Assembly: GCF_000004825.1 (NCBI RefSeq)
Contig: NW_008805086.1
Coordinates: 965,410 to 1,029,409 of the forward strand
Reading direction: 5' to 3'
Length of the DNA stretch: 64,000 bases
Source of the DNA: Heterostelium pallidum
Taxonomy: Eukaryota
Below, piece after piece: positions 3,577 through 61,885 of the stretch; position 1 is the first letter of the stretch; the number at the start of each line of letters is the position of its first letter. The notes beneath the pieces are model-generated. The model was not told the origin of the DNA. It was given only the letters and a program-made list of their open reading frames with translations, and ran no database searches. The position numbers and the translations under genes were made by a program.

Positions 3577-4749
3577 TTATTTCTTTAGACTTTCCAATAT
3601 TTTCTTTTGGGATTCAACAAAGTCAGGGTTACTCATTAAAGACATAATATTTGATATTTCATTGTCTTCATTATTATCATTGTTATTATTATTACTATTA
3701 TTACTATTATTATCGATACCAAAATGTCTAAATTTGTTGGTTCCATTGGCATTTCTGGTTGTTGGAATGGGATAGGATAGAGGAATTGCTGTAGTTGGTG
3801 GTGGTGGTGGGTGTTGACGGTTGGTTCGTGGTGGTGGTGGTGGTGGCGGCGGTGGTTGACGGTAAATACTTGTGGTTGATAGTGTTGATTTTATCGATGT
3901 ATTGGATGTTGGCATACCACGGGTATAAGCGTCTGAATATGTAATCAGATACTCGGGATAGGCACGACCGTTCTCATAGATGGTAAATATATCACCGCCT
4001 TTATAACTGTCGTAGACACCACGACTTGTGAGATCAGCCATCTGATCAAAGGGCACCGATAAAGCCATTGCACAACTACCTAGTAGCACACGACAATAGA
4101 ACATCTGGTAGATATTGCCTTGGCTCAACGTGTGTCGGTATCCATTGCTGTAGCTAGCGTTCATCGCAAAGTAGTGTGCCTTTCCGAAGCTGCCATAATT
4201 GGAAAACGACAGGTCGAAACCGACAGGATGATCATAGATCTCCGAGGGTCTGTGCGTTCTGGTTCCATGGTAGAGTCGTGATTCAACGATGACGGAACTA
4301 CTTGCATTGTAACGCTTCATCAACTCTAGACACTTGCTATGATAGCTACGCCAGAGTGTTTTGCTCTGAACACGCTCCACCTTTGTAATGTTGAAACTTG
4401 GAAGTGTTTCTCGAAAGTGTTGATGTATTTCATAGAATTCGGTGCCGGATCTGTCGATTTCAACCAATCTGACCTGCTCCTTTTGTGGTAACAGCCAGTA
4501 GAATGGAAAATCATGTTTCTCTGCTATTGCTTCCAGACCAAGTGTATCTACTACTTCGGTTTTGATTGTACTTTTTATAGATTTTCGTTGTGTGTCATCT
4601 TTCAATTGTTCAAAACTACTTTCTTTTTCTCTTATTCTCTTTTGACGTGATGATGATGATGAAGATGTTGCTGAATCTGTTGCTCTTGTAGTCGTCGTCG
4701 TTGTAGTTGAATCATTTTCAGATTTTTTTGGGAGTAAAATGAAATCCAT
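3577..4749 (-). CDS. PARP-family mono-ADP-ribosyltransferase (PARP7/11/12-like catalytic domain, H-Y-I triad) with a proline-rich C-terminal tail
   Basis: Single 390-aa ORF. Catalytic-domain hallmarks are FYEIHQHF..ITKVERVQSKTLWRSYHSK, the histidine in LYHGT, the tyrosine in GKAHYFA, and DIFTIYENGRAYPEYLITY. In that last motif the position of the PARP1 catalytic Glu is Ile, as in mono-ART PARPs. A run of 9 Pro and a poly-N tail follow. Confidence 0.8.
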   Translation of the reverse strand: MDFILLPKKSENDSTTTTTTTRATDSATSSSSSSRQKRIREKESSFEQLKDDTQRKSIKSTIKTEVVDTLGLEAIAEKHDFPFYWLLPQKEQVRLVEIDRSGTEFYEIHQHFRETLPSFNITKVERVQSKTLWRSYHSKCLELMKRYNASSSVIVESRLYHGTRTHRPSEIYDHPVGFDLSFSNYGSFGKAHYFAMNASYSNGYRHTLSQGNIYQMFYCRVLLGSCAMALSVPFDQMADLTSRGVYDSYKGGDIFTIYENGRAYPEYLITYSDAYTRGMPTSNTSIKSTLSTTSIYRQPPPPPPPPPRTNRQHPPPPPTTAIPLSYPIPTTRNANGTNKFRHFGIDNNSNNSNNNNNDNNEDNEISNIMSLMSNPDFVESQKKILESLKK

Positions 4750-5784
4750 TTGATCTTGTGATCACTTTATATCATATATTGAAAACATTAATAAGTATAA
4801 TAAGAAATTACTTCCAGTAGATTAAAAAAAAGGATACAAATTCTAAGAATTCATTATCCCTCAACTGAAAAAAAAACAAATAAAATAAATTACAATTTAT
4901 ATTGTTATATTTATAATAAATATTTATATAAATTATTTATTTTATATTTTGATAAGTTTTATTGTTTTTTTTTTTTTTGCTGTCCATATTTCTGATGTAA
5001 AAAAGTAAAAGTAGCATTTTATTTAATCCATTGATTTGCTTAAATGTCGATAAAAAATTTAAAATGTTAAATTTTTTTCAATGATAGTGGTTGTGGCTGT
5101 TTTTCACAATTTTTTTTTCTTCGTTTTTGCAATAGAGATTAATATTAAAAAAATAAAATAAAATATCAAACCTTGTTAGATTTTAATAAAAATTAGATAA
5201 ATAGAAAGTATTTTTATAGTAGATTTAGAATATAAAGTTTGATTTATTCTTTAAAAAAAATTTGAAAGAGTTTGGCCTCTGTTTTTCGATGGGTAAAATG
5301 AGTTTTCCAATCTGCATCGGAGTTCGGAGCAAGCTACAACAAACCCGAGAGATCAAAGAATACAGGGACAGACATATTTATCAATGTTATGAAAAGATCA
5401 ATCAATTTCTCAAAGATCTTCAATCAAAAATTGGTGTTCAAAAAATGGTTATTGTAATATGGGAAATTTATATGAGAAAATCAATGATAGGCAACTAGCG
5501 AAATAGATATTTAACAATGGACCCTACTGATTAAATAAAGCACATATATCAATAGAAATGGTTCAACACACGATATGTGATCTTGAATTTCTATCGATTC
5601 CTTGAATAGTGGATATAAGCTGGTATCTTTCACTTTGCCAATCTTCACTAAATATTAAATTTTGGTTTTTATTTGAATCAAACACAATCAAATCAACAAT
5701 AACCATATAAAATTCAATTGTATAATGTTAGCGATACGAAAAAGCAACTTTGTATTATAGTAGATTGACAAGAAAGTGAGTTAA

Positions 5785-6100
5785 TAAATGAATAAATGAA
5801 TAAATATAATATATATGAATATAAATATATAAATATATAAATATATAAATATATAAATATAAATAAATATAATATTTAAATAAATATAAAAAATATAAAT
5901 AAATATAACACTGAAAATAAATATAAATATTAAGATAGATATAAAGATAAATATAAATAAATAAATATAATACATATAATTGATATATAGAGAAATAAAT
6001 AAATTACTGGATGAATAAATAAATGTATGAAAGGAAGAAAGAAGAATGGGTGGATGAAAGATTGAAAGAAAGAAAGAAAGAAAGAAAGAATGGATGAAAG
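5785..6100. repeat. AT-rich low-complexity tandem repeats (ATAAATAT-type units, then (GAAA)n at about 6058-6095)
   Basis: Visible periodic aaatataaatatat units and gaaagaaagaaagaaagaaagaaagaat. The ORFs listed here (5781-5975, 5930-6193) are poly-I/F/Y translations of these repeats. Confidence 0.7.
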
Positions 6101-8154
6101 GAAGAATGAAAGTGAATTAGGTGCTAATTCACTGCAGTGCAAATAAATAGAAATATAGTGTAAGAATATAAAAATGTAAAGCGTTGAGCACAATGTGCAC
6201 TGGACTAATACAGTACTTATATTGTATTACCTATATCTATTTATTTATAGAATGATACATACCATATAAACAAATTAAAGGCAAAACTAACCTATACTTT
6301 TTTGGAGAAAAAAAAATAAATTTGAATTAGTTATCTTGAATATACTTGATTATTTACCCACTCCCTGCACTGAGTGTGCCCCTGGTAATCCATTCTATTA
6401 TTATTCACGACTATCATATCAAAATGGAGAAAATCTACATGATAACCGGGTGGCTCGTTCGATGCACCTTTATTGTTGTTACTCAACAATATTTTTCTAT
6501 TTAAAACAAAAAAGTTAATAAGTAAGAATGTTTATCCAAATTGATTTTCAATTACATACATTTTATTTTTAAAGATTGTAGCTGAGTCGATATAATAACT
6601 TGACCACCTTAGTTAGAAATATTGACTAGTTGGCCCTTTATATATTCTAAAGTGGTGCATTTTAAAATATATAGTTTTATAGTGTGCCTACCCTATAATG
6701 CCGGATTGGTCTGTATCAAATAAGTTAGTAAAACATTAATTGAATAATGTATACTAGACATTATTGAGTGACAGCCAGATGGGAGTCTTCATCTTTTACA
6801 TTCGGTAATACCAGAATAATTTGTCGTAGGCATACAAAATTATCTGATATGTTGAACATAAAATTAATGACATACGAAATATAATAAAGAAGTAAATAAA
6901 ATTTATATTAATAAAATTATATGCGTATACCTTTATTGGACTATTCTCTTGATTAAAAATACAAATAAAATCTAGAAAGATCACATTCTTTGTATGAATT
7001 GACCTTTGTATAATAGAATGAATTAGTTAAGTACATTCACAACTTGTTATTTTACAATGGTAATAATATCATATTATAATATACATATAAACATATAAAT
7101 ATAATACTTACAACTTTGATATAAGATTAGGAATTACTTTAGGAATAGTTTTGGTACAAGGAATATAGATTTAATGAATGTAATAAAGTTTAGAGATATA
7201 ATTTATAGTATAATATTTAAAGATAATAGTTTATTTATTTTACAGTTTGAAGATAAGAATAATATTTGGTAATGTTGAATAATGTTGAATAATTAATTAA
7301 TTTCTATAATGGATTTTCCAAGGTATTTATACTGTTGGATTTCTTCGACTAGTGCAGTTGCTCAATCTCAGAAATCTGTTCTTGATTAACTAGTTTGGTA
7401 TTCATTGTAGATTAACTTGTTGGTTATTTCTTTATGTTAACTTTGATAGATTGATATTTTGTTGATTCACTGAATGTTGATATTATTCTAATATATTTAA
7501 TTATTGTTAAACAGCTGGATTATTAATTTAAGTTATTTGAAATCGTGTCCATAAACTGTTTGAATTGTGATAGTTGAATTCTTAATAAATTATTGAAGTG
7601 TCAGTTGATTTGGTTATTATAATTCTAAAATGTTAATTTTAGAACACAACTGCTATATAAGGAACTTATACTTACAATGAACTAAAACATAATATAAAAC
7701 AAAATTTACTACTACCAAATCAATATGCTTCAACATTCAAACACTCCAGATAATGAATCAGGTTGAAAGCGTTATTCTAAAATAATATAGCAAAGTGCTC
7801 ACATTTTGAATTGTGTTTTTGTTAATAACCAAAATCACCTTATTCAATGTTGAAATAAATTTGATTTGAAATGTACTAGACCAGACTCCCATCCGAACAT
7901 ATACATAGCTTCATCAAACCCATAACAACAAATGAAAAAATAGGCGAATTGATTGCAAGATTCTTTACACACTACTGCATATACTATTTCAAAACAAGCA
8001 ATCAAAAATTATTGAATAATTATGATCCACTAAAGATATGTCAAAGAAATAAAAATTAGTAATCTGTATTCATTAAAATAAAACAATTATTACTTACACT
8101 ATCTTTTATGCCTAAACATCTCCACATACCAAAAAGATAATAATAAAATTTGAA

Positions 8155-9771
8155 TTATAAAAATGATTTTAAAACATTTCCAATCATATTTTGAATTGGT
8201 CTTATTACCAGGTTTGATAATGGGTTCTTAATGAGTAGAGTGGAGAAGAGCTGTCCATAGTCCGCTATGGCTGTGAGGCATGGAATTCTTATAATAAGTT
8301 CTCGTAGAGATGGCCAATTGGATAAGAAGTCACCGGCATTGTTCATGTTTTCGTCTTCTTCTGCGGTATTCAACTGGTCCTTGATCTTTTCATATGGAAT
8401 ACAGAATCGATCGATCTCCATTGCATCGTCAGTTTCCTCAACTTGTTCCATGATAGGATCTTCATGTGATGTCATTTCTACATCATTTGATGCTGCTGCT
8501 TCTGACTGTGGTGGAGATTGTTGTTGCAGTGTTTGTGAAAGTTGTTGTAAATAGTTGATTTGTTGTTGTTGTCTATAATCTTGAATCTGCGAGTTGTAAT
8601 TGTTATCGATTTCAAAGATTACGACAATTTCTTTTGCTGGTTTTGATTGTTCCGTTGATTGCACTGTAGTGTTGTGTTGAATAGGAGTATGGAGTGGTGT
8701 TTGGGTTGGAGATTGGATTGGTGATTGAGATGGAGTTTGGATTGGTGTTTGGGATTGTGTTGGAATTGGTGTTTGGATTGGTGTTTGGGATGGTGTTTGA
8801 ATTGGTGTTTGGGATGGGGATTGGATTGGTGTTTGACTATTTACATGAGTTGATTTGTGATGTTTTTGATTGTCCATTGATTCTTGATTATTATCTTCTT
8901 CTCTTATTCTTTTTTTTGTTGAATTGTTATTATTATTATTGTTATTGTTATTTATTTGGTTATTTATTTGGTTATTTATTTTTTTATGTTGACTATTATT
9001 GTCACAATCATCCTCTCTTTCTTTTCTTTTACCACTATAAATCAAGCTCGATCCGATATCATGATCATCGTCACCAAAATCAATCGATTCGATATCAAAC
9101 AATGGTTTACTTTGGGTATTTTGTGTATTATTATGTGTATTATTATGTGTATTATGTGTATTATTCTGTGTATTATTCTGTGTATTAATTTGTTTATTAT
9201 TTTGTGTACTATTTTGTATATTATCTTGTGTATTATTCTGTGTATTATTTTGTGAATTAGTCTGTTTTGTTTTCTTTGTTCCTCTGTAGCCTCTTCTTCT
9301 TTTGTTTGTACCAGAGAGTGTTTGGTCTGGTGTAGTTGTGGTAGCTGGTTTTGGTGAAGATTGAGATGAAGTAGAAGCAGCTTGTGAATTTGAAAGTGTT
9401 GGTTGAGATGGTGACTGAGGTGACGAAACAATTTGTTGTGTTCTTGAAGGTGTGGGTTGTGGAGCTAATTTAGATGTTACATTGGCATAAGTATTTATAA
9501 TATCGCTCATCTCTTTTGCCTTTTCCTTATTTGATTCGTCTACATTCTTGGCAATCTCATTCATTTCTATCATGGTGTTTAGATAGGTGGTATGTGCCTT
9601 ATCTCGAGCTGGTTTCCAAGACTGTGCCTCCTCCTTGGTGGTCGATTCGTAGCCTTTGGAAATTGTAGTCTCTTTACCAACTTGACTTTTCATAGCAGAA
9701 TATTTGTAGATAGTCATTTTGTCAACTTCATTTCCACCCATGAATTTAATGTAATGTTTATTGGCACGCAT
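8155..9771 (-). CDS. Low-complexity (NTQ / QTPIQ repeat) protein; either a separate gene or the last exon of the 9831-11487 gene
   Basis: The ORF is 538 aa. Its ATG at 9771 is directly preceded by AG, and a GTAAGT donor sits at 9839. That defines a 68-nt phase-0 intron (9772-9839) that would fuse ..FQFLDNRS to MRANKHYIKFMGG... I recognised no domain. The N- and C-terminal parts are non-repetitive. Confidence 0.5.
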   Translation of the reverse strand: MRANKHYIKFMGGNEVDKMTIYKYSAMKSQVGKETTISKGYESTTKEEAQSWKPARDKAHTTYLNTMIEMNEIAKNVDESNKEKAKEMSDIINTYANVTSKLAPQPTPSRTQQIVSSPQSPSQPTLSNSQAASTSSQSSPKPATTTTPDQTLSGTNKRRRGYRGTKKTKQTNSQNNTQNNTQDNIQNSTQNNKQINTQNNTQNNTHNTHNNTHNNTQNTQSKPLFDIESIDFGDDDHDIGSSLIYSGKRKEREDDCDNNSQHKKINNQINNQINNNNNNNNNNSTKKRIREEDNNQESMDNQKHHKSTHVNSQTPIQSPSQTPIQTPSQTPIQTPIPTQSQTPIQTPSQSPIQSPTQTPLHTPIQHNTTVQSTEQSKPAKEIVVIFEIDNNYNSQIQDYRQQQQINYLQQLSQTLQQQSPPQSEAAASNDVEMTSHEDPIMEQVEETDDAMEIDRFCIPYEKIKDQLNTAEEDENMNNAGDFLSNWPSLRELIIRIPCLTAIADYGQLFSTLLIKNPLSNLVIRPIQNMIGNVLKSFL

Positions 9772-9830
9772 CTTTTTTTTGTAAAAAAATATTGATTAAT
9801 AATTGTTTTGAATTCAAATTATATAATTGA

Positions 9831-11487
9831 TTAACTTACTGATCTATTATCTAAAAACTGGAAACGATGATACTCTGTAAAACCAGGAAAGATCTTTATT
9901 TCTTTCTGTTTCAATTCCTTTGGGTTATGAATTTCGACTGTTACTTTGATGGTAACAGCTTCCTTCTCTGATTCAGAGGTCAATTTGTATGTTCTTTGAT
10001 AGTTGTTGTTGTCAGTGGTACTCTTGATTGCATTGATAACATCTTGATCTGTATAGATTGAATCTTTGAAACTCGACTTGTCTGCTATCGCTCTAGAAAC
10101 CATTGAAAAATGTTGATCGCATTCACTCTTTCCGTGATAAGGTGCAAAAGTATTCAATTCGACGAGATACTTTCTTTTGGTTTTGTTTGGAGTGTTTGGA
10201 TCAGCTACTTGCAACTTTGACAATGTATGCATATATGAAAGTATTTCATTTGACTTGAAGTGTCTAGCATTATCACACCAAAATGTAATTTTGTTGATAT
10301 TTAGACTGGTGAATAATGGATCATTGATTAATTTGTCGAGACATGAAATTGCAAATGTCGAACAGTGATTAAGTACTTGTGAAAGACAGTCATAGTAGTG
10401 AATCTTCAGCTTGTCACCTTGCTTATAGAAGAGGACCATTCCAAAGAAGGTACGAGCAGGTTGTTGGTAAAATTCATGGCTTACTTGCACTTTGGATTTA
10501 CCTAATGATATATTCTCTTTAAAATCACAGAGAATAATACACTCTCCTGCCTTTAACTCATTTTTCTAAATATTAATAAATCATTAACTAAATGTATTAA
10601 TAAAATTATAATTACACATGTCAAATAATCATTCTTTCTTTGCTGAACAAACATCTTGTGAATAGTCAAGATTTCAAACAGTTTATGATCTTGATCTGAA
10701 AGTTGCCCAAACTTAATTCGTTTTGACTCGAGAGCCTGATACTGAACACACATTGGACACATGTCGGTTCGATTCTTCATTTCTCTGACATACTCTGGTA
10801 CGAAACTGTAAAATGCACTTCTACCCATGAGTGGATACTTGACTTGATCAACTTTACTCTTCTTGAGGTAATCTGAAAAGCAGGTATTTATGTTTCCTAA
10901 AGCAAGGTTCTTGATTGGCACCAACTCGAATGCTCGTTTACCATCTGCGTCGAGTTCTTTGCTGTACAACCTCATGTTTTTACTTGATTCTTCAGTTATA
11001 TCTTTCATATTGAAGTAACCTTCGACGGCTGTCCTTAGCATCGTGGTTCTTTGTCTTCTTGTCATTTGTCCATTGTGTGTAAATTTAGATCTCCAATTGC
11101 TGATCTCTTCTGCATTAATCAGTCTACCTGCACCATACTTATGTACGTGTTGAATTGCACGATTCCACGCATTATTATCTATTGTGATTCCAAACTCTCT
11201 GATTTCCTTAGAAGTGTAAAAAGGAACTAAACTTGATAACAATCTAGATTGGGAATATTAGTATCAATGATATACAAAATCGTTATTAAATTTAAAACTT
11301 TACTTTTATTACCAGACCTCTCTGATAATTCACTATAGTCCTTATAACGATTACTCTTGACTGGTTTAGTGTTTGAATCACTAACTGATTTTATTGAATT
11401 CAATACTCCTTGTGTATAATTATTGAAAGAGGGAGCCAATGATGGACTATTATTACTCTTATTTTGTGTAGTTAATCTGCTTGCCAT
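9831..11487 (-). CDS. Transposase-like protein of an unnamed family (motifs DF-x-EN / W-x-DN-x-x-HFK / HGK-x-x-CD); 3 exons, possibly spliced on to 8155-9771
   Basis: Exon 1 is 11313-11487 (an alternative donor gives 11304). Exon 2 is 10616-11226. Exon 3 is 9831-10565, or ends at 9840 if the TCA|GTAAGT donor is used. All junctions are phase-consistent. Joining the exons gives ..NDYLTC|KNELKAGECIILCDFKENISLGKSKVQVSHEF... Other motifs are CPMCVQYQ, ITFWCDNARHFKSNE and YHGKSECDQHF. Confidence 0.6.
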
Positions 11488-12887
11488 TTTAAAATAAAAC
11501 TTAATTAAAATAACGAATCAAAAATCAAATATAAATAATTAAAAAGAATCACTAACTTTAAATTATTTTTTTTTTTTTAAAAAAAAAGCAAAACAACAAA
11601 AAAGCATAGCCACATGATAATAAGTATTAGTTTGATGCACCTCTTTAACAATATTTAATGATTAAATCTATAGATTGTTTTATTTTTTTCTTTATTATTA
11701 AATTTTAAATACATATATTGTGTTTTGTTTTTTAAATAACTCTCTTTTGATCCATGTATAACCACATGACCAACAGTCTACCTGTTTGTAGAATAATACC
11801 AAAGAGGTTACGAGGGGTCATAATGTTCACGAATTGATGAACATTATATTTCCTCGATATATTTTCTTTGACATTCGAAACAATGTTGAATTGCTCTAAG
11901 CATTATTAGTTAGCTAAAATAAAACCATTGGTTTTCACCAAATCTTGACAATAATTAAAAGGTTCACGTTTCTCAGCTGCTCTTCTCCTATAGAATTCTC
12001 TGAATGATGATGATGGTTTAACCAGTCAGTTAATTAAAGTTGTTTAAAAGTGAAAAAATAAAATAAATCTATATCTTTATAAATATTACATCCACTATCC
12101 TTTTTAGCCAATCTATGATTACATGTGCTTGTTTATATGTTTATTTTACTTTTTAGTTGAGCAATAGAACTAATTCTGTTATTGAACTCAAACTTTGTAA
12201 TTGTTTCTGTTATTGAAACGCATGCTAATCGGTCATTGTCCAGTAATTAACCTTTATTTACTAATTTACTACATCTCGTATATCTTGGTGATAAATATTC
12301 AAATAATAATTAAATTATAACTATATTTTAAAAGAATGAATTAAGATGTCTGTTTTCTTTTGTTTTGAATGCAAAAAAAAAAAAAACCAATCCCAAAAAA
12401 TAAATAAAAAAAAAAGTTATTTTCAAATGATCCAAACTAACTTGGATATTAGAAAAAGAATCTTTTTTTTTCTTTATCCTCGATTCTTGGTAAAAAACTT
12501 TTGGAATTAAGTTTTCAACCTCTTTTTTAATATGGAGAGAATTTGACTCATTACAACTAAACTATTCTTTTTTGTTTTGACAAAACCAAATTTTTTCATT
12601 TTAATTTTTTTACTTTACAAACCTTCAAAATAAAACAACAAATACAATCTTCAAATTTATTTAATAGTTACTATTTCTTTTTTTTTAATATTATATCTAT
12701 TCTTTTTTATTCTTTATCTTTTCTTTATATTATTATTTATTATTTATTTTATTTGTTTATATATAGTTTTATTAGTTCAAAGTTATTTATTTATAATTTT
12801 TATTTATTATTATTTATTTATATTTATATTTTTATTTATTTTCTATTTATTTTCTATTTATATATTTTTTTATTTATTTTATCAAAT

Positions 12888-14956
12888 ATGTCAACATATA
12901 AAACTATTAGTGATTTAAAACTAGAGGATTTTATCAATAATGAAACTTTTTCAAGTAAATCAAAACAAGAATCACAAGACGCAACCAATCTTCTTTTCCA
13001 TCTTCATAATATTATTCATAGTTTTTATTTAAAAAATATTAATAATTTAAATAATAGTAATTTTAATAATATATCTATTTATATAGAAAAGAATCTTAAT
13101 AATATAAACTCTAAAGATATCTATAATCAATCAGATTCAATAACAATCAATTATCAAACTTTACAATATATTGTAAATAGATTATGTAATAAAAAAGATA
13201 GAGATGAAACAAAAGGAATAAATAAAATATTGGGAAAGGGAGAAATATCTGTATTGGAAGTATATAAAAAAATATCTCTAGAAAATACAAAGTGAGTATC
13301 ATTAAAGTTTTAAAAATAAATTTTGTTTTAAAATCAAACTAATAATAATTTTATATCCAGGAAACAACTTAAGGTGTTTATTAAGGAATACAGGGAGAGT
13401 AAAGTTTTCCAATTATTACCAGTCGATCAAAACAGCAATTATGATACTACTCAAGTTGCAAAACAACTCACAACCAATATAGTAAATCACCTCTCAGTTC
13501 AACTTTCAAATCATATTAGAGATATAATGAAATTATACAATGCAGCAATTAAAGAGCTCCTTCCAGATCCAGAGATAGATCGTACAGAGACCCTTCGATT
13601 TCTTATTAAATACAACATTGTAAGTTTATTTTTTTATTATTTATCAATAATAGAAATATAATTAATATAGTTTTTTTTTTACAATTATTTTTTAGGCATC
13701 AATCTTACCAAATAAAGAAATTAATAAATTGTTGGCAGACAATAAGTTAGAAAATACAGATCCAACTGAGAATATTATAAGAATTATAAATAACAATTTA
13801 GATTATTCAACTCTCAACCTCAGCAAACTATACTCATTTTTTAATGGATATGATTTTGAAAAGCTTCAACAAATGGAGAAAGGTGTATTCACCAACAGCT
13901 GGAAATTTTTTTCAATTGGATTGGGCAGTGTTTTTTTTAAATTTCAAAAAAACATTGAGGAAATAGGTCATCAAGTGGAATTTGCACAGCTTGTTAATTC
14001 TCTGAACCAACATATCGAACATTCTAATTTATTACAAGGTATGTTTAAATATATTTATAATCATTTCTATTAATGATTAAAATTAACTTTTTTAATTATT
14101 TTTTTTTAATAAATAGTTGTAAAAGATGGTAAACAACTCTTGGATGTATTAGGCAAACAAGAAGAGCCATTGTTGGTAAACACGTCTGCTCCAAGAGATA
14201 TCAAATTTACCAACTCGGAAAGCCATTTGGTTATTTGGGTTCGATCAATCTTTAAGAATATCTCAAAATATGGAGATCAGAATTTGGATAAAATTCAAAA
14301 GAGATTATCGTTCTTTATACCAGCAGCACCAACCTCATCAACAACCACAACTGCAACTACTCCAACAACAACAACAACAAAAGTGAGTTTTTTCAATTGT
14401 AATTCCAAGAATCACGAGGCACTTGGATTGGCGAAGCCAACACCGGTAGTAGACAGATATCGAGATACAAATATTTGCAGTACATGTCAGTATCACACCA
14501 ATAACAGAAGAAAAGAAAATCGAAAAGACATTTTAGCAACAGATATAATTAAATCTTTAGGCGATTTGAAACAAGAAGATAATAGTAAAGTAAATCAACT
14601 TTTAGTTATAGTAAAGGATATAATAGTAGAAGTTTTTAAATCAGAGATAAATGACAATTATAATATAGATACTTTAATAGAGATATTAAAGATAGAAAAG
14701 GAGAAGTATGATCATCGCGATAGTAAAAAGAAAAACAAGAAGAATGAGAAGAAGAAAGAGAAGAAGAAGAAAAGCAAACAAAGTTTAAAAAATCTACAAC
14801 CACAACAACAACAACAACAACAACAACCACAACAACAACAACAACAACAACCAACAGTAATCAACAACCTTCTCTACGATCTATATTTGATGATAATGAT
14901 GATTTCGAATTTAAAAGTGATGATCCAATAGTAGCTACAACAACAACAGATTCAAC

Positions 14957-14992
<36 letters not shown>

Positions 14993-15744
14993 TTTAGAAG
15001 GATCAGACCAATCCTATCACCCAGAAGAAACCACTGCCAATGGTTTTTTTGATATCTTGAATTATTTCTCCCGAATGCCACTTCCATCAGGTAGCTCCAA
15101 AGATACTAGTGCTAGCCGTGCAGATCAATTGCAAGATCTGCAGATGACTGAAAAACCAATCTCTCCGTATTCTCTCAGTGAAGGACCACCGGATCCAGAT
15201 GTAATATTCGTATCAGACCACCTTGATTCAAAGGTTCACCAAAAGAGAAGGTTGAATGAGAATACCATATACTACGATATTAAAAGTTGCTCTTGGCTTT
15301 TTGTAGATCCATCCAACTCAAAGGATTTGTCTGATGAGCAGCTCCTATCAATCAAGGTGAACCGTATAAAGCAAATCCTACAACTTGGTAAAGGTACCTT
15401 CTTTCTTTGTGGTATAGCATTATGGAAACTTCTCCGAGTTCTTATCACGAATGAAGAGGTCAAGATCACCAATAGAGATCATTGGTATACATCAATGAAA
15501 TTGACTTGTAGCTTTGCCGGTCGCTCCATCACATTATTTCTGTTATCAGATCCTTGTCATTCATCAACAATAACAAAACAAGGATTCCAACATTATTCAA
15601 ACTGGAAAAAGGATACAGCTATAAATATCATCGACTCGGAGGCAAAACCAACTACAACCACCACCATCTCCAAATCTCCTCATATCAACAAAAGCAATAG
15701 AAATAGGAGATTGATATTTATCAATAACAAGGTTGTAGAGAGTG

Positions 15745-15780
<36 letters not shown>

Positions 15781-18700
15781 TTTCAACTCAATATTGTAGT
15801 GGTGATGATAAGATGATTCATGAAGATAAAGAAACATTAGGTACCGATCAATGTATGGAGGATGATGTCTCTAACGATACTTCAAATGAATCTATTATTT
15901 CAGCTAATGACCCACCAACACCAACCACTACTACCACTACCACTACTACCACTTCCACTTCCACTACTACTAATAATAATAATGACTATTACAAATTCTT
16001 TAATATTCGTAATAGATCAATGTCATTCACTCTATTTCCTAGTGTAGATTTGTAAGTATACTTTTTAATTATTCAAAGATCTAATATTCACTGACATTAA
16101 TTTTTTTTTATTTTTTTTTTTTTAAATAGATTTAATCCATTCAGTTTGATGTATTCTGCCAAAGACATTAGAAGAATCATCAAAGCCGAGGATGGTATGA
16201 CTGATATCCAAGTTATAAGATCTATTTTAAAAGTAGATTTCCTCAGGAGAATATTTGAAGCCAATCCGATCGATGTACATATCAGAACAAACGGTTATTC
16301 AGGTGGTGTTGTGTTTAAAAGCAAATCAAAAAAAGTTCAAAAACAATACGAATTGAGTAAGTTGATAGATATTTATAATCTAGTTTGTATTTTTTTTTTA
16401 CTAATCAATTTTTTTATTTTATTTTTTTTTAAAGTTGGTTTAAAAGACATAAAAGATAAAGAAGTACTTACTGAAGAACAATTTGAACAACTTGGTGTAG
16501 TAGTATGTGATCCAGCACCAAACCACAATGTTTGGTTAAATAACAAACATCCGTTTGCAAACGGTGATTATTCTTTCCGAAAGAATGTCATTGACGTGAA
16601 GTCTTCAACGCATCACTTTCAATCCGAGTCTGGTCTGAACAAACACAAAAAGAATAAGCTACTCGGTCACGATTTAATGAAATGGCAGTCTGACATACCT
16701 TCAGTCAAAGGTAATATCATTTTTCACAAGATTATCAAATTTTGTTTATCTTACTAACTATAAATACTATTTATTTTGATTTTTTTTTATCATAGGGTCC
16801 AGTACAAACAATATTACAGATCTTGTAATATATGAAAAACGATTGGAATTTATATTCAAATCGGTTTTTTTACCACCAGAACAAAGAAGTTCAGATATCA
16901 AACCATATGGTACTCTAAGGGCAGTCGGAGAAGAGAAAAAGAAAGAGCAACGAGTCTGCCTCTCAAACAACACCACCATTCCATATCACTCAAACCAGCA
17001 TAAATCCGTCTTCCATCAGTATCGACAATGTCATGGTGATGCGTGGCAAAAGGTTGATTTGGATCGATCGCGATCAAAGAAGCACAGTGAATCATTAAAT
17101 TCGAAAAAATTGTTCAACTTTGCATTGCAATCGATTCCTATCAAGCAGTTAACTCATGATCCAATGCAGATCGATTCCACCGATCCCAATGATCCAAAGC
17201 AGATCGACTCCACCGATTCCAATACTCCAAAGCGCGTGCCAAAGTTGGTATTCAAGGGTAACAATGTACCCATCCAATCCGACAGGGAATCATCTCAAGA
17301 GAAAAGTGGTGCCAATAAGATGAAGCTACGACGCGTTGGATCTCCCATCAAAGTGAGAAAAGTATATATTCACTTACTTCGAGAACACCTCGGCAAGCTT
17401 GACGATGGCTCACTGGAGCGATTCATGGATCGATTCAAATTTGTGCTAGATATAACCTATTTGCAAGATGATTTTACGAATCTACAGAAAGAAGCATTGC
17501 TAAAGTTCCTCAAGGATCACAAACTCGAGTTCCTCGAACCAATCGACGAGTCCAATGTACGATTAATTGATATACAGACTGCAATTCACTATTATGGAGT
17601 GGAGCTCATCCAACAAGCAATGGATATATGGAAATTCTTTAAGTTTACCGAACCATTGCCAGGTAATCAAGGTGTGGAAAAAGAAGTAGATTTCAAAGAT
17701 GGCATAAATAGAGTCGAACAAATTACAACAACTTTCAGGAACCAAGCGTTTCAAAAGTTTTGGTTCAGACGTATTCATTTCGAACGGTGCAAATGGCTAA
17801 AGGATCATGGAATTAAGATCATGCCAGATAGTGTCGGAGGTCACTGGATTAGACCAAATCAATCAAAAGTGGACGCCAATGAAGACAGTATTTACCAACT
17901 ATTACCAGTCTTTAACGGCTTGACAATTTTGGTCATGGTATCTAACGGTACAGATGAAGGAAAAAAGGTAGAAAGAACATTAATCGGTCGAATTAAATTG
18001 AATGGTGGAAAGTACACTAGGGATGTAAATGGCACATTCAACTTTATGGTTACTGACAAGAAAGATTGGGACAGCACACCAAACAAAAAGGCGAGAGAGA
18101 TCTGTAAGGTGAAGAATATTCCAGTAGTTTCCAATGCCACTTATATTACAGATTGCCTGAGACAACATGTGTATCTACCTCTACTATCGTATGATCTGTC
18201 GTCAGCTGCCAACACTACCAGTAGTGCTGCGAAGGTTTCACCAAGCAAGAAGAGTGGTTCCAAGACAGCTACCAACACTACCAGTAGTGATGCGAAGGTG
18301 ACACCAACCAACAAGCGTATCGACTCACCCGCTCCCTCCATACCGGATCTTCAAACAAAAAAGAAGTCCAAGAAGACCGACAATACCGACAAGAAGTCTA
18401 TCGATAGCGATGAAGACAAAGACAATCATCCGAAATCCCGAAAGAAATCAAGTAAGTAATTAACTATTTGTTATTTTTCAAATTAAAACAGTTCATTAAT
18501 ACCAATATAAACACTTTCATTCTTTATAGAGAATAAGAAAAGAGGTAGATGGAAGTGTTTATGTTGTGGAAAAACCAACAATTTCAAACGATTTACTGAT
18601 GTACATTACAAAGTTCTCCACTGCAATCACTGTTTATTGGTACACATCCCTTTTAAAGATCGAAAAGCTGCCAAAGAATCAGTTGATAAAACTAGAGTCG

Positions 18701-19431
18701 GTAAGTATCATAGTTGAAAAATAAAAAATAACAACTGTTTTTTGATTAATCTTTTTTTTTTCACACATTTAGTTATTGGTGCTGGTTGTGGTAATTTAAA
18801 TCATATTCAACGAATGAAAGGTGTGAAATATAGTCCTGCCACGGAAAGAATCACCGAATCTCTCCAAAGATACAGTTTCAGTGTTTCGAAAACAAACATG
18901 AAAATATCAATTTCCAACGAGTTCAATACATCACAAGTAGGTTTTAACTGTTTAATATCAATTGTTTTTTTATATTTTTACTAATAAAATAATTATTTTT
19001 TTTTAAATTTTTAGGTGTTTGGTCCAAACATCGATAAACTAGAAAATGACTTTGTTTCAGCAATCAACAAACCAGTTTCAAACGAGTGGACGCAGGCAAA
19101 GAAAGATGAAGAGCTCCATTCGTTATATAACCTAGCCAAGGTCAAACCCCCAGGAGAGAGTAAATCATATAAACCAAAAGATACCAAGAGGGTATATAAC
19201 AAGTCATTCTCTGTTCGGTTGTACACTGGAAACGATGACCAAGGCCAGCCTAAAGATATTTTTATCAATAGAGATATTCTTGCATGTACAAACATGATGG
19301 CAATTGCTAAGGCCTATTTTTGTGGAAAGCAACGTCCACAACTTTTAGCACCATTCACCAGTCAACCTATTATTAATACCCCGGGCAAGGAATGTCCACG
19401 ACAAAATTTGATTTCTGCGTTTACGCAGTAA
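12888..19431 (+). CDS. Giant multi-exon gene (about 1,950 codons) with a C-terminal TnpB/Fanzor-like split RuvC nuclease module and a BRCT-like insert; contains one unresolved frame break
   Basis: Hand-derived exons: 12888-13291, 13361-13619, 13696-14038, 14117-~14850 (frame 1), ~14850-16051 (frame 0), 16130-16356, 16435-16710, 16796-18451, 18530-18700, 18773-18936, 19015-19431. All junctions are GT..AG and phase-consistent except the frame switch inside 14748-14931. RuvC-I is LGVVVCDPAPNHNVW (D codon 16508-16510). RuvC-II is ISISNEFNTSQ (E codon 18919-18921). RuvC-III is DIFINRDILACTNMMAI (D codon 19273-19275). Confidence 0.6.
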
Positions 19432-19827
19432 GTATTGAAATTTTTTTTTTTAAAAAACAAAAAGCACAATTTACTAATTTTTTTCTGTTTTTCAAGAGAA
19501 TAAATCAAATGCTATAAAAAATATTAATTTGTTTTATTTAATTAATTTTCATCTGAGTTTAAATTTAATTAAACTTAAGTGTAATTTTCCAAAAGAATGT
19601 ATTATTATTACTCTCAATATGAAAACCATCTTTATATTTTATATAGAAAGATTTATCTTTATTAACTCAAGATCAATACATTATAATGAAAAAAGACTTG
19701 CTCCAAACCAGAAAAGATTGTAGAGTGGTAATAATAAATAAATACTGTTTTATTACAAAATAAATAAAAGCATCATTAATTGAATTTTTAGAAACCAAGA
19801 ACATAAAAACCTGGTATAGTTTTTTTT

Positions 19828-41456: not shown

Positions 41457-42875
41457 ATGGAAGATGTATACAATATTGAGAAGAGAAAACAAATATTTGA
41501 AGTTTTATCAAATAATTTAGAAATAAGATATTTAAAGTATATATGGGTGGATCTATCAAATTTTATTCATGTAAAAGTTATTAGAACCAAGTATTTATTG
41601 GAGCACCAATGCAAATATTTTTCGTTTGGTACCAACTTTCTGTTTTTGAGATGCTTTGACAATCTTTCCAATGTTATAATTCCACCAGAGGACAAAGAAA
41701 CTTACTTTGTTCCAGATTGGAATACATTCCATGTGAATTCTTATCAAAAGGGAATTGCAAGTGTGTTTGGTTCGATCTATAGAATGAAGAAAGTAGTTTT
41801 AGGAAATGGAAATTCGTTCATACAGTGTGAACCATATGAACACTGTCCAAGAAATATTTTAAAAAAAGCAGAGAATACACTGTCGGAAATTCATATTGAT
41901 GGTGAAACTGGTATCAGCTTGAAAGGTTCATTTGAAGAAGAGTTCTATTTATTACCATTGGATACACCAATACCTGAAGAGGCTAATTCCGAATTAATAC
42001 CTGGATACAGTTTATACCATGTGGATGATCACATAGAGATCCTAATTGATATGGCCAAACACTTGGAGGATCAAGGTGTGCCGAATGAACAGATTCTGCA
42101 TGAGGGTGCACCAAACCAATTTGAAATAACAGTGCCTTACACATCGATCATGGAAGCATGTGATCGTCATATCATTGTGAGAAGTACAGTTCATGCTATT
42201 GCCAAGAAACATGGATATCAAGCCACTTTTATTCCTAAACCATTTAAAAACGACCTTGGAACTGGTTGCCATGTTCATCTTTCTCTGTGGAACAAAGACA
42301 AGAATTTAGTACCAAATCTAACTCATTCAACTAATTTATCAAACATTGCAAGACGTGCGATCAGTGGTATATTGCATCATGCTAGAGGTCTAACTGCTAT
42401 TTTCAATGCGTCTGTAAACTCATATCAACGTTTGAAGCCTATGACCTGGTCTGGAGGTGCCATTTGCTGGGGTGTCAATAATAAGGAATCGATGATTCGT
42501 GTTCCACACAGTGCATACACATTCAGTAACTTTGAATTGAAATCATTGGATCATAGTGCCAATGTGTATGTGGCAATGGCAGCCACTATATATGCAATGG
42601 TTGATGGAATGATTAGTGATAGTATAAAGATGCTTCCTCCAATTACCAAATACCCGTGCCAATATACTGACAGTGAAAGAGATAACCTAGGAATAAGACA
42701 GTTTCCTAAAACTCTTGGAGAAGCAATCAAAGAACTTGGCTCAGATACCTTTTTGATCAAAATGATGGGTTCCGAATTTATAGAGACCTTTTGTGCTATC
42801 AGACAATTCGAACAAGATTTTCTTAAAGGCAAGAGTGATTATGAAATTATTAAACTCTATTACAAACTGTATTAA
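41457..42875 (+). CDS. Type-I glutamine synthetase-like ATP-dependent amide ligase, tandem copy 1
   Basis: An intronless 472-aa ORF. Motifs are GSFEEEFYLL, EGAPNQFEITVPY, ATFIPKPF..GTGCHVHLSLW, NSYQRLKP and WG..NKESMIRVP. Confidence 0.9.
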   Translation: MEDVYNIEKRKQIFEVLSNNLEIRYLKYIWVDLSNFIHVKVIRTKYLLEHQCKYFSFGTNFLFLRCFDNLSNVIIPPEDKETYFVPDWNTFHVNSYQKGIASVFGSIYRMKKVVLGNGNSFIQCEPYEHCPRNILKKAENTLSEIHIDGETGISLKGSFEEEFYLLPLDTPIPEEANSELIPGYSLYHVDDHIEILIDMAKHLEDQGVPNEQILHEGAPNQFEITVPYTSIMEACDRHIIVRSTVHAIAKKHGYQATFIPKPFKNDLGTGCHVHLSLWNKDKNLVPNLTHSTNLSNIARRAISGILHHARGLTAIFNASVNSYQRLKPMTWSGGAICWGVNNKESMIRVPHSAYTFSNFELKSLDHSANVYVAMAATIYAMVDGMISDSIKMLPPITKYPCQYTDSERDNLGIRQFPKTLGEAIKELGSDTFLIKMMGSEFIETFCAIRQFEQDFLKGKSDYEIIKLYYKLY

Positions 42876-43302
42876 TAATAATAAAGGTAGATTTCTTGGT
42901 TCTAGAAAGAAAAAATAATTTTAAAAAAAAAATTTTTCATCAACAATTTTTTAAAAAAAAAAGGAATCATTATTTGAAAAGATGTTACTTTGTGTATTCA
43001 TAAATCTGAGACAAAAAAATTGGTGAAAAAGATCACTTTTCAGTTTTTTTTTTCTTGAACCAATCATAAATTAAATGGGCAGTTGAACAAAAATGAAAAT
43101 ATTTGTTTGTGTTTAGTTGTAAATTGGCATTGGTTGAAAAGATCCGGGAACCATGTTTTATTATTATAATCTATCTATTCGAGGTTTCTGCTTATTGTTC
43201 GTAAAGTTGAACAAAAGGTGTACCACAGACATATAAATAAGAAAATCAATCTACAACAATTTTAAATTACATAACTTTTTTAAATCAGTGTTTATTCAAC
43301 AA

Positions 43303-44724
43303 ATGGAAGAATTGAATAATGAAAAAAGAAAACAAATATTTGAATATTTATCAATACACACAGAAATTAGATATCTAAAATATATTTGGATTGATCTTTC
43401 CAATGTTATACACTCGAGAATCATCAGAACAAAATATTTGCTAGAAGAACGATGCCAGCACTTCCCTATTCTCATTACCTTCCTTTATTGGCGATGCTTC
43501 GACGGAAGAATAAGTCCAGCGGTTGATTATAAACTCGAAGAATCTGAAGCTTACTTTTTGCCAGATTGGGGAACATTCCAATTGGTTTCATATCAAGCAG
43601 AGACTGCACAGGTTTTTGGGTACATTTATCAAATTAAGAGAGTGGCTCAGCCTGATGGTGCTTTCAAGACTCACTATGATGCCGTGGATTGTTGTCCTAG
43701 AACCATGCTGAAGAATGCAGAGAAAATACTTTCGGAGATCCATATCGATGGTGCAACTGGTATCAGCTTGAAAGGTTCCTTCGAAGAAGAATTCTATCTA
43801 CTTCCTTTTGGTACGTCATTGCCTGAAGATTCTAGTTATGAATACAGACCATGCTTTAGCCTTTATCATACAGATGAATACTTTGAGATTCTAACTGACA
43901 TTGAGAAACACTTGGAGGCTCAGGGTGTGCCAAATGAACAGATTATGACCGAAGGTGGACCAAACCAATTTGAAATAACAGTGCCTTACACATCGATCAT
44001 GGAAGCATGTGATCGTCATATTATCATCAGAAGTACAGTTCATGCAATTTCCAAGAAACATGGATATCAAGCCACTTTTATTCCCAAACCTTACAAGAGT
44101 TACCCTGGAACTGGTTGTCATGTTCACCTTTCTCTGTGGAACAGAACCAATAATTTAGTTCCAAATCTCAGTCATCCAAATGGTCTGTCAAACATTGCAA
44201 GACGTGCGATCAGTGGTATATTGCATCATGCCAGTGGTCTGGCTGCTATTTTCAATCCAAATGTAAACTCATATCAACGTTTGAAACCATTGACTATTTC
44301 AGGTAATTTTATATGCTGGGGTATCGGTAATAAGGAAGCGATGATTCGAGTTCCACCATGTTCTTATACATTCAGTAACTTTGAATTGAAATCAATGGAT
44401 CATAGTGCCAACCCGTATTTGGCATTAGCTGCAACTATCTATGCAATGGTCGATGGAATGATTAGTGATAATATTAGGATACTTCCCAACATTCCAACAT
44501 TTCCAACACTCTACACCGAAATAGAAAAAGAGGAACTGGGCATTAGAGAAAATCCTAGATCTCTTGACGAAGCAATCAAAGAACTTAGATCAGATACCTT
44601 TTTGATCAACATGATGGGTTCTGAATTTATCAAGAACTTTTGTGCTATTAGACAGTTCGAACAAGATTTTCTTAGTGGCAAAACTAATCATGAAACCGCC
44701 AAACTCTATTACAAATTGTATTAA
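43303..44724 (+). CDS. Type-I glutamine synthetase-like ligase, tandem copy 2
   Basis: Intronless and collinear with copy 1, with the same motif set. I took the start at the first ATG (MEELNNEKRKQIF); the ORF track begins at an upstream GTG. Confidence 0.9.
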   Translation: MEELNNEKRKQIFEYLSIHTEIRYLKYIWIDLSNVIHSRIIRTKYLLEERCQHFPILITFLYWRCFDGRISPAVDYKLEESEAYFLPDWGTFQLVSYQAETAQVFGYIYQIKRVAQPDGAFKTHYDAVDCCPRTMLKNAEKILSEIHIDGATGISLKGSFEEEFYLLPFGTSLPEDSSYEYRPCFSLYHTDEYFEILTDIEKHLEAQGVPNEQIMTEGGPNQFEITVPYTSIMEACDRHIIIRSTVHAISKKHGYQATFIPKPYKSYPGTGCHVHLSLWNRTNNLVPNLSHPNGLSNIARRAISGILHHASGLAAIFNPNVNSYQRLKPLTISGNFICWGIGNKEAMIRVPPCSYTFSNFELKSMDHSANPYLALAATIYAMVDGMISDNIRILPNIPTFPTLYTEIEKEELGIRENPRSLDEAIKELRSDTFLINMMGSEFIKNFCAIRQFEQDFLSGKTNHETAKLYYKLY

Positions 44725-45523
44725 TAATGATATGTATGATAGATTTTTCTCTTCACAAATTTATTAATGATTCGGTTTTACAAACATTAGTGATCGAAAT
44801 AAACGAGTGATGATTTCAATTTTATAAAATCAAACACCACCCACACGATATTTATTTTTAGTATAATGCAGACGTCTCTTAATCTCATATTCTTTAAACT
44901 ATTAAAAAAGTATCGAAAAATAATAAATCACTTGCAAAACTAGCGATTAATTGAATCGTGAATCAAATAAAATTTAATTTTGATTGAATTTGTCTATTTT
45001 TGTCAAAAAAAAAAACATTTTGAAAGTAGAACAAAACCATTAACATCCAACAAAGCCTAAAATCAGAAAATTATTGGGTTAAATATAATTAAAATGTGTA
45101 TTTAATCATTGTTTTTGTTACTAATATTTAAACACACAAAAAATTAATTAAATTCTTTTTTTTATGATTAAATTTTAAAATTACATTAAATTTGGGGGGG
45201 GGCTGTATCAACAAATCACAAAATAGACCTCCCCTGTTCTTTCAAATCTTCGATAAATCTAACTACCATTCATTATATATATATCACAACTTTTTAAGAT
45301 CAATATTAATAATTAATTAAAATTAAAAAAAAATTGGTACTTCTTTTGTTAAATAAAATTACTTTAATTAATATTATCATATAAAGGTATTAGATATAAC
45401 AGTTATTTGTTAAATTATTACTTTTTTATTTGTACTTAAATCAAAACAAACTTTCTTTACATTCAATCAAAATCAAAGAATCAACCAATTGTTTTTCTAG
45501 ATTTTTTTTAAAAATAAATAATT

Positions 45524-51508: not shown

Positions 51509-58655
<7,147 letters not shown>

Positions 58656-61700: not shown

Positions 61701-61885
61701 TCGTTTCCACCAGCTCTACTTGAGGAAGATGACGATGCCTCAGGGCAATCTCTCGAAATATGACCTGTCTGATTACATTTGAAACAAGCACGATCATGAC
61801 CTGTTCCTCCACCTTTTTGATTACCTCTAGGTCCTCTATTACCTTTCTTATCTATTCTAAAAAAATCATCATTATTATCTGACAT
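58712..61885 (-). CDS. Nop9-like Pumilio-repeat RNA-binding protein with an N-terminal array of five CCHC zinc knuckles
   Basis: Six exons: 60677-61885, 60474-60602, 60080-60397, 59842-60019, 59581-59759, 58712-59503. All junctions are GT..AG and phase-consistent. The knuckle is C[FY]KCNQ[TP]GHISRDC, five times. Pumilio/Nop9-like helices include DRICSFILEGILK, THVNGSRVLESII, NHVVKSLIEN, VDPVGSKVLDAFL, DKCGSFVMERIY and a C-terminal NVFKKKKDQW. Confidence 0.65.
61283..61795 (-). repeat. Tandem coding repeats of about 100-130 bp encoding the CCHC-knuckle units
   Basis: Near-identical stretches such as ggacaatctctcgaaatatgacc.gt.tgattacatttg.aaca..cacgatc recur five times on the plus-strand read. 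Confidence 0.9.

Follow-up and report, generated by a model that had tools for sequence, protein, structure and literature searches.

The window analysed here is a stretch of 64,000 nucleotides (nt) from contig NW_008805086.1 of the Heterostelium assembly GCF_000004825.1 (positions 965,410 to 1,029,409, forward strand), AT-rich eukaryotic DNA with short introns. Near its left end lies a large spliced gene on the plus strand (12888-19431) whose product ends in the motifs of a TnpB/Fanzor RuvC nuclease domain. We are confident that it is the Fanzor1 gene belonging to PPa-4, a chimeric DNA transposon of the Sola2-Fanzor kind from Heterostelium album (Polysphondylium pallidum) PN500, of which the window carries a full-length copy that inserted recently. 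The object is already known: it is the PPa-4 element of Bao and Jurka (2013, Mob DNA 4:12), apparently their copy GL291006_1. The element and its parts are as follows.

5062-5065, no strand: left target site duplication (TSD), AAAT, read in the sequence and identical to 19507-19510
5066-19506, plus strand: complete PPa-4 Sola2-Fanzor1 element, 14,441 base pairs (bp), from end matches to the published consensus
5066-5081, plus strand: 5' terminal inverted repeat (TIR), imperfect, about 16 bp, GTTAAATTTTTTTCAA; the published TIR length for PPa-4 is 16 bp
8155-11655, minus strand: Sola2 DDE transposase gene in several exons, located by tblastn of the published Sola2_PPa-1 transposase
12888-19431, plus strand: Fanzor1 gene 'PPa-4', 11 exons, product of 1,899 amino acids (aa)
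12888-13291, 13361-13619, 13696-14038, 14117-14705, 14858-16051, 16130-16356, plus strand: exons 1-6 of the Fanzor1 gene
16435-16710, 16796-18451, 18530-18700, 18773-18936, 19015-19431, plus strand: exons 7-11 of the Fanzor1 gene
14706-14857, plus strand: doubtful fourth intron, 152 nt, GC 33%, GTATGA...CAACAG, leading from frame 0 to frame 2
16435-16710, plus strand: RuvC-I exon, VVVCDPAPNHN (LGVVVCDPAPNHNVW in this exon) and the start of the S..PS.K segment; D1031 is encoded at 16509-16511
16796-18451, plus strand: insertion exon of 552 codons, most of the RuvC-I/RuvC-II insertion
17908-18192, plus strand: probable BRCT domain (Pfam BRCT_2, BRCT)
18530-18700, plus strand: zinc-ribbon exon, CxxC-x18-CxxC (KCLCCGK...HCNHC), directly upstream of the RuvC-II strand
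18773-18936, plus strand: rearranged RuvC-II exon, VIGAGCGN...NEFNTSQ; E1756 is encoded at 18919-18921
19015-19431, plus strand: last exon, with an 85-aa Cys-free linker, RuvC-III FINRDILACTNMMAI...GKQRP and the stop codon; D1848 is encoded at 19273-19275
19432-19506, plus strand: 3' untranslated tail, 75 nt, ending in the 3' TIR (...CAAGAGAATAAATC)
19507-19510, no strand: right TSD, AAAT, read in the sequence

The identification with PPa-4 is supported at both the protein and the nucleotide level. Bao and Jurka (2013) described seven Fanzor1 families in this genome, with PPa-1, -4 and -5 located inside Sola2-type DNA transposons; their table gives PPa-4 a length of 14,423 bp, 3 copies, a 16-bp TIR, a 4-bp TSD and a Sola2 transposase, and its Fanzor protein 1,827 aa in 14 exons. 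In their Additional file 3, the motif strings NEFNTSQ, INRDILAC, CDPAPNH and GAGCGN are each found a single time, all in the entry >PPa-4. The published PPa-4 protein maps collinearly over 12888-19428 on the plus strand (tblastn), and our spliced model shows 32 mismatches to it, about 98% identity at aligned residues (blastp), the remaining differences being gaps caused by differing splice choices. The product thus belongs to Fanzor1 by identity with an already classified protein. The ends of the published consensus also match the window closely, the first 210 nt corresponding to 5066-5275 (208/210) and the last 143 nt to 19364-19506 (143/143), and the 3' flank GCTATAAAAA is the one that Additional file 11 gives for copy GL291006_1. 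The element, the TSD type and the Sola2 transposase are the same in both descriptions, and the gene model alone differs. The first-pass annotation of this DNA, made from the sequence alone, had raised the possibility of a highly derived RNA-guided nuclease lineage; the element is not new, as it is present, apparently in this same copy, in the 2013 supplementary files. It had also described the protein as 3-5 times larger than known Fanzors, which overlooks the dictyostelid Fanzor1 proteins of 945-1,827 aa, PPa-4 among them, that were already tabulated by Bao and Jurka (2013).

The transposon itself is well delimited. Residues 132-1159 of the Sola2_PPa-1 transposase align to 11263-8158 on the minus strand with 98.3-99.6% identity, and residues 22-41 align to 11655-11596 with 100% identity (tblastn). 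This similarity (98-99.6%, from which the DDE class is taken), the AAAT TSD and the imperfect TIRs of about 16 bp place the element in Sola2. AAAT is among the TSDs named by Bao and Jurka (2013), who give a 4-bp AT-rich TSD for PPa-1, -4 and -5. Compared by eye, the 5' end and the reverse complement of the 3' end agree at about 10 of 16 TIR positions. Since the TIRs and the AAAT duplication bound 5066-19506, the Fanzor1 gene lies inside a transposable element, where it and the transposase are transcribed divergently from an AT-rich spacer. Recent activity is suggested by the intact ORF (open reading frame), the intact TSD and the roughly 98% identity of this copy to the consensus. The 3' end also has an apparent match in inverted orientation at 5239-5252, which lies within the element and was rejected as a TIR. 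Simple-repeat, AT-rich sequence makes up the left 3 kb (5066-8155), where ORFs do not exceed 87 aa; this part belongs to a 7-kb block that is 98% conserved among PPa-1, -4 and -5 (Bao and Jurka, 2013).

Three-frame translation of 12700-19600 gives a plus-strand chain of long open segments, which splice into a model of 5,700 nt and 1,899 codons with zero internal stops and ten GT-AG introns. The first-pass annotation likewise counted ten introns, with about 1,950 codons. Nine of the introns are of the dictyostelid type (69-85 nt, GT[AG]AGT...AG, GC 9-19%). The fourth, 14706-14857, is doubtful: its composition is coding-like, rich in lysine and glutamate codons and with CAA repeats. Without this intron frame 0 runs into a stop at 14929-14931, and it is required because frame 0 must pass to frame 2 within 14748-14928. 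The published PPa-4 protein implies the same 14705/14858 junction (KIEKE/NNQQPS). We rejected a frameshift or pseudogene at 14748-14928, as the GTATGA..CAACAG intron bridges the two frames and is also used in the published model. Residues 6-1877 of the window protein are collinear with the paralogue PPa-5 on both sides of the doubtful intron, which supports reading the whole, long N-terminal half included, as one gene.

Our model has 11 exons and 1,899 aa, in contrast to the 14 exons and 1,827 aa tabulated for PPa-4 (1,795 aa in the protein file). It keeps a contiguous BRCT-like segment, half of which the published model splices out, together with poly-N and poly-T tracts that are likewise spliced out there, and it adds the zinc-ribbon exon 18530-18700, which is not in the published protein. 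Intron 18937-19014 as placed here yields NTSQVFGPN, which is closer to PPa-5 (NTSQIFAPK) and PPa-6 (NTSQMFSPK) than is the NTSQVGFNCLISIVFGPN of published PPa-4. We regard the exon model, which is a prediction, as probably improved and as a modest new point. At the 3' end there is a possible extra terminal intron, 19428-19496 on the plus strand, with a GTAAGT overlapping the last codon, a branch-like TTTACTAAT and an acceptor TTTTTCAAG inside the 3' TIR; its splicing would turn ...FTQ* into ...FTQE*, with the stop codon within the TIR.

Judged by its sequence, the C-terminal part of the protein is a TnpB/Fanzor RuvC domain in which the three predicted metal-binding positions are intact and in the correct register. 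The RuvC-I Asp lies in VVVCDPAP (D1031) and is invariant in the family, with the position two residues on occupied by Ala rather than Gly or Asn; the conserved segment SSTHHFQSESGLNKHKKNK..WQSDIPSVKGSS that follows straddles the 16711-16795 intron. In Fanzors, Gly or Pro stands in for the canonical RuvC-II Glu, and the alternative Glu some 45 residues further on is essential in ApmFNuc (Jiang 2023). The window protein shows this rearrangement, with Gly where the canonical Glu would be and with E1756 in NEFNTSQ as the alternative Glu, 45-47 residues beyond G1709/G1711 and followed by T1759 and S1760. E1756 lies about 725 aa downstream of D1031. RuvC-III reads INR1847D1848ILACTN, in which R, D and N do not vary within the family, and the longer string DIFINRDILACTNMMAIAKAYFCGKQRP is present in exon 19015-19431. 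In the cryo-EM (cryogenic electron microscopy) structure of SpuFz1, D383, E541 and D606 are the Mg ligands (Saito 2023), and our family-profile alignment places D1031, E1756 and D1848 opposite them (numbering corrected for an offset of 394 in the maltose-binding protein (MBP) fusion chain). The register of this alignment and the fit of the rearranged-Glu spacing to Fanzor are the reasons to take the RuvC assignment as right. The D/E/D motifs that the first-pass annotation had read in canonical order at the C-terminus have held up: every motif that it quoted is found in the exon it named, and the D, E and D align to the SpuFz1 ligands.

Profiles were built from dictyostelid paralogues. The family alignment comprised the C-terminal regions of the window protein, PPa-1, -2, -3, -5 and -6, and a Dictyostelium fasciculatum Fanzor1 from the paper's file. 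An extended profile reaching through RuvC-I used six dictyostelid Fanzor1 C-terminal regions, including that of the window protein, from which most of its insertion (exon 16796-18451) was removed. The columns that show no variation are the D of RuvC-I, two glycines in the RuvC-II strand, the E, T and S, the R, D and N, and the C-terminal R-P. Against 177,635 sequences of the PDB, the RuvC-II/III profile gave three matches at E<=10, namely SpuFz1 (8GKH, E 9.5e-4) and two LaTranC chains, and the extended profile found only SpuFz1 (E 3.8e-4) and two LaTranC chains at the same threshold; the LaTranC matches ranged from E 0.0037 to 0.047 across the profiles. The alignment to SpuFz1 is collinear through the pre-RuvC strands, IDP, S.IPS.K, E..TS and NRD..N...RP. 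The similarity to solved Fanzor and TnpB proteins is thus marginal but specific. The Pfam profiles OrfB_IS605 and OrfB_Zn_ribbon, which the first-pass annotation had named for a check, gave no match; the protein halves returned from Pfam just weak BRCT_2, DUF4277 and DUF3439 matches.

Searches of large protein collections gave no match. Spliced queries of 1,369 and 904 aa against a word-indexed collection of 5.8 billion protein clusters gave 8,000 candidates each, none of which scored, not even the query itself, and an exhaustive HMMER search of 1.84 billion representative proteins with the last exon gave 0 matches, again not even self. Since not even self was returned, the window gene and its paralogues are absent from these collections, which is a further modest new point. 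Neighbouring H. album genes are present there, and transposon genes of the H. album genome appear to be unannotated in the public proteome. Homology searches of protein databases will miss the Fanzor1 gene because it is missing from the public collections searched.

The RuvC-I and RuvC-II motifs are separated by an insertion of about 550 extra residues, within which lie a BRCT-like domain, a stretch rich in Lys, Ser and Thr, and the displaced zinc ribbon. The first-pass annotation had noted an insert of about 560 aa; the insertion is real, and it is composite, as residues 1162-1428 (about 270 aa) are common to PPa-5 and about 1429-1706 (about 280 aa, extending into the next exon) are specific to PPa-4. 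The BRCT-like segment lies in the latter part. It matches Pfam BRCT_2 over profile positions 2-85 of 86 (E 3.1e-4, 21.4 bits against a gathering score of 27.3) and BRCT over positions 4-77 of 78 (E 6.1e-4, 20.4 bits against a cut-off of 21.3), both just below threshold. It is not in PPa-5, and the published PPa-4 model removes half of it as an intron. A phmmer search of the segment against the PDB gave 0 matches, and an AlphaFold2 (AF2) single-sequence model of 17353-18204 was unusable (predicted local distance difference test score 36). A BRCT domain within the RuvC insertion is probable and apparently a new observation. The Lys/Ser/Thr-rich repetitive stretch is possibly a nuclear localisation region. 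At 18200-18300 on the plus strand, the S/T/K-rich repeat TATNTTSSxAKVxPxKKSGSK is present in 2 units, as opposed to 4 in the published consensus protein, so its number differs between copies.

The zinc ribbon is encoded by the exon 18530-18700, whose 171 nt are divisible by three and open in frame, whose flanking GTAAGT..TAG introns measure 78 and 72 nt, and whose GC content is 35% versus 19% in those introns. It gives weak zinc-ribbon matches in Pfam (Lar_restr_allev, E 0.013). A displaced ribbon before RuvC-II, as predicted by this exon, appears to be another new observation. The first-pass annotation had correctly described the linker between RuvC-II and RuvC-III as Cys-free, but the ribbon that it called missing has a displaced counterpart in the CxxC..CxxC motif of this exon. 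The C4 finger between TS and RD is also missing in PPa-2, -3, -5 and -6, which indicates that its loss is a trait of the lineage and not the decay of one copy.

Among characterised proteins, the best and almost sole PDB match of the family profile is SpuFz1 of Spizellomyces punctatus (PDB 8GKH; Saito et al. 2023 Nature). Their alignment runs collinearly through IDP (RuvC-I), S.IPS.K, the G at the canonical RuvC-II position, E..TS and NRD..CNM....G..RP, and both are transposon-borne. SpuFz1 has 633 aa in a single exon, sits in a 2.1-kb TIR element and carries a CCCC finger in its NUC/TNB domain. The window protein, in contrast, is three times larger, and its gene has ten introns; some 550 additional residues separate its RuvC-I from its RuvC-II, and about 1,000 residues precede RuvC-I. 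It lacks a finger at the SpuFz1 finger position and has Ala in place of the Asn385 ligand. TnpB proteins of the IS200/IS605-IS607 group (for example ISDra2) and Cas12 have in common with the window protein the split RuvC D...E...D, the TS and RD signature and carriage by transposons. TnpB differs in its length of about 400 aa, in its canonical RuvC-II Glu, in its zinc finger and in its partner, a Y1 TnpA or a serine recombinase, whereas the window protein has the rearranged Glu, lacks the finger and is paired with a eukaryotic DDE (Sola2) transposase. Additional domains between RuvC-I and RuvC-II are known elsewhere, as Cas12b-type enzymes carry a second REC domain at this place. In PpFz1 of Parasitella parasitica, an FRI domain of about 100 aa within RuvC binds cyclophilin (Xu et al. 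2024 Cell), which provides a precedent for a RuvC insertion that recruits a host protein; FRI is unrelated to BRCT, and the window insertion is about five times larger. By analogy with FRI, the BRCT-like insertion could recruit a host factor.

How the protein might act can be sketched from its relatives. The basis is what characterised Fanzor1 and TnpB enzymes do, TnpB homing included. Like them, the window protein would bind a non-coding RNA for which the 3' part of its own gene and the right end of the transposon serve as template, and a guide derived from the flank would direct the RuvC site to cut matching DNA. The target would most plausibly be the emptied donor site left by cut-and-paste Sola2 excision, with homologous repair restoring the transposon; mobilisation itself would be due to the Sola2 transposase and not to the Fanzor. 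By analogy, the scaffold of the guide RNA would end in the tail 19432-19506; the element ends 75 nt after the stop codon. In the years after the 2013 description, Fanzor1 enzymes proved to be RNA-guided nucleases.

A number of results weigh against the explanation given here. The RuvC-I motif is DPAP instead of DPGR or DPN. The family signature of Bao and Jurka (2013), D-X(125,275)-[TS][TS]-xx-[C4 finger]-X(5,50)-RD, allows 125-275 residues where the window protein has 727 between D1031 and T1759, and calls for a C4 finger between TS and RD where the 85 residues from NTSQ to INRD contain no Cys. The SpuFz1 match is significant solely as the summed score of weak collinear pieces. Searches of the PDB with the spliced C-terminal part as a single sequence (phmmer, E<=10) and with a RuvC-I-only family profile each gave 0 matches, and neither OrfB_IS605 nor OrfB_Zn_ribbon matched the N- or C-terminal half at E<=1. 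At the 3' end, the predicted RNA fold of 19250-19506 is not distinguishable from shuffled sequences (z = -1.47), and the whole window has no Rfam match at gathering score; a relaxed Rfam scan of 18700-19800 gave one sub-threshold SNORD46 match on the opposite strand. Finally, we infer nuclease activity, RNA guidance and a role in homing from characterised Fanzor1 and TnpB enzymes.

The main rival reading is that, with the TNB zinc finger lost and the RuvC domain heavily interrupted, the protein is a Fanzor1 descendant that no longer cuts DNA and serves as an RNA-guided or plain DNA-binding accessory of Sola2, or is a decaying passenger. This is possible, though on balance unlikely. The Cys-free 85 aa lie where SpuFz1 and the ISDra2 TnpB keep their CCCC finger, and the DPAP motif replaces DPG or DPN, with Ala at the Asn385-equivalent ligand; the roughly 550 residues inserted within RuvC, the count of just 3 genomic copies and the failure to detect a structured 3' RNA point the same way. 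However, the three acidic ligands are kept here and are invariant in the aligned paralogues (six besides the window protein; five in the extended alignment), and this constancy, although PPa-2, -3, -5 and -6 also have no finger, suggests that the active site is under selection in a lineage without the finger. The 1,899-codon ORF also remains open, a substitute zinc ribbon adjoins RuvC-II, and PpFz1, which is active, tolerates an insertion domain in RuvC. The gene model raises a different doubt, that prediction has fused two adjacent genes, an N-terminal protein ending at the stop 14929-14931 and a separate Fanzor gene downstream. The doubtful intron is indeed unlike the other nine, being twice as long, with a GC content of 33% against 9-19%, a GTATGA donor and a coding-like K/E and poly-Q content. 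We nevertheless consider a fusion improbable: PPa-5, at 25-35% identity, shows the same succession of N-terminal, middle and RuvC segments; Bao and Jurka picked the same junction; and frame 2 has no ATG-initiated start near the junction, its first in-frame Met (QDLQMTEKPIS) lying about 100 codons past the acceptor. Fanzor N-terminal halves are, moreover, known to be long and variable (Bao and Jurka 2013).

Two further explanations concern whether this is a transposon-borne Fanzor at all, and both seem to us very improbable, the second even more so. The large gene, its ten host-like introns and its extra domains (BRCT-like and low-complexity) typical of dictyostelid cellular proteins would fit a Fanzor that the host has domesticated as a single-copy gene, an option that the first-pass annotation had left standing. 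The gene is, however, a transposon passenger and not a domesticated gene, because it sits in a complete Sola2 transposon with TIRs, an intact AAAT TSD and its own transposase, conserved at 98-99.6%, beside it. There are also three near-identical copies at different loci with different flanks, on GL291006, GL291002 and GL290995, and no conserved orthologue was detected, as neither the 1.84 billion representative proteins nor the 5.8-billion-cluster collection contained a homologue. Chance resemblance of RuvC-like motifs in a low-complexity protein, for its part, would explain why Pfam gave no match to these motifs and why single-sequence searches were empty. It would not explain why the aligned paralogues show no variation in the motif columns, why the two profile searches that matched the PDB returned at E<=10 just Fanzor1 and a TnpB/Cas12-like protein in the correct order and register, or why the gene is associated with a transposon. 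We therefore retain the Fanzor1 gene of PPa-4 as the identity of this feature.

Beyond this identification, one may speculate that the protein is an active giant Fanzor1 without the TNB finger, in which the relocated ribbon substitutes for it and the BRCT domain tethers the RNA-guided cut to the machinery of double-strand break (DSB) repair, so favouring homology-directed re-copying of the Sola2 element. We hold this to be doubtful. If true, no Fanzor before it would have carried a repair-pathway adaptor of its own, and the protein would illustrate in nature how a RuvC insertion gains a function, comparable with Cas12 REC2 and PpFz1 FRI.

Elsewhere in the window, exact matches among the ORFs are to the H. 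album PN500 proteins PPL_04536 and PPL_04541; exact look-ups of neighbouring genes for their genomic context found nothing on record. Genes outside the transposon include the following.

3577-4749, minus strand: PPL_04536, a gene with a PARP catalytic domain
41457-47008, plus strand: three glutamine-synthetase paralogues in tandem (Gln-synt_C, E 1e-79 to 1e-84)
51849-53291, plus strand: second gene with a PARP catalytic domain, adjoining a 1,769-aa ORF with VIT, VWA and 14-3-3 domains (region 51849-58655)
60656-61885, minus strand: 409-aa ORF that has five zinc knuckles of the CCHC type and weakly resembles PUF/NOP9; it could be a cellular CNBP-like protein or the remnant of a retroelement Gag

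As a discovery this locus adds little, since the element, its Fanzor1 class, its copy number and the link to Sola2 were published in 2013. The window protein is an unstudied extreme of its family: the largest tabulated Fanzor1, intron-rich, without the otherwise 'strictly conserved' finger and with a big insertion in RuvC that includes a probable BRCT domain. If it is active, the TNB finger would be dispensable and Fanzors would be able to fuse domains that recruit host factors, which would bear on how TnpB proteins grew into effectors of Cas12 size and on the engineering of such enzymes.

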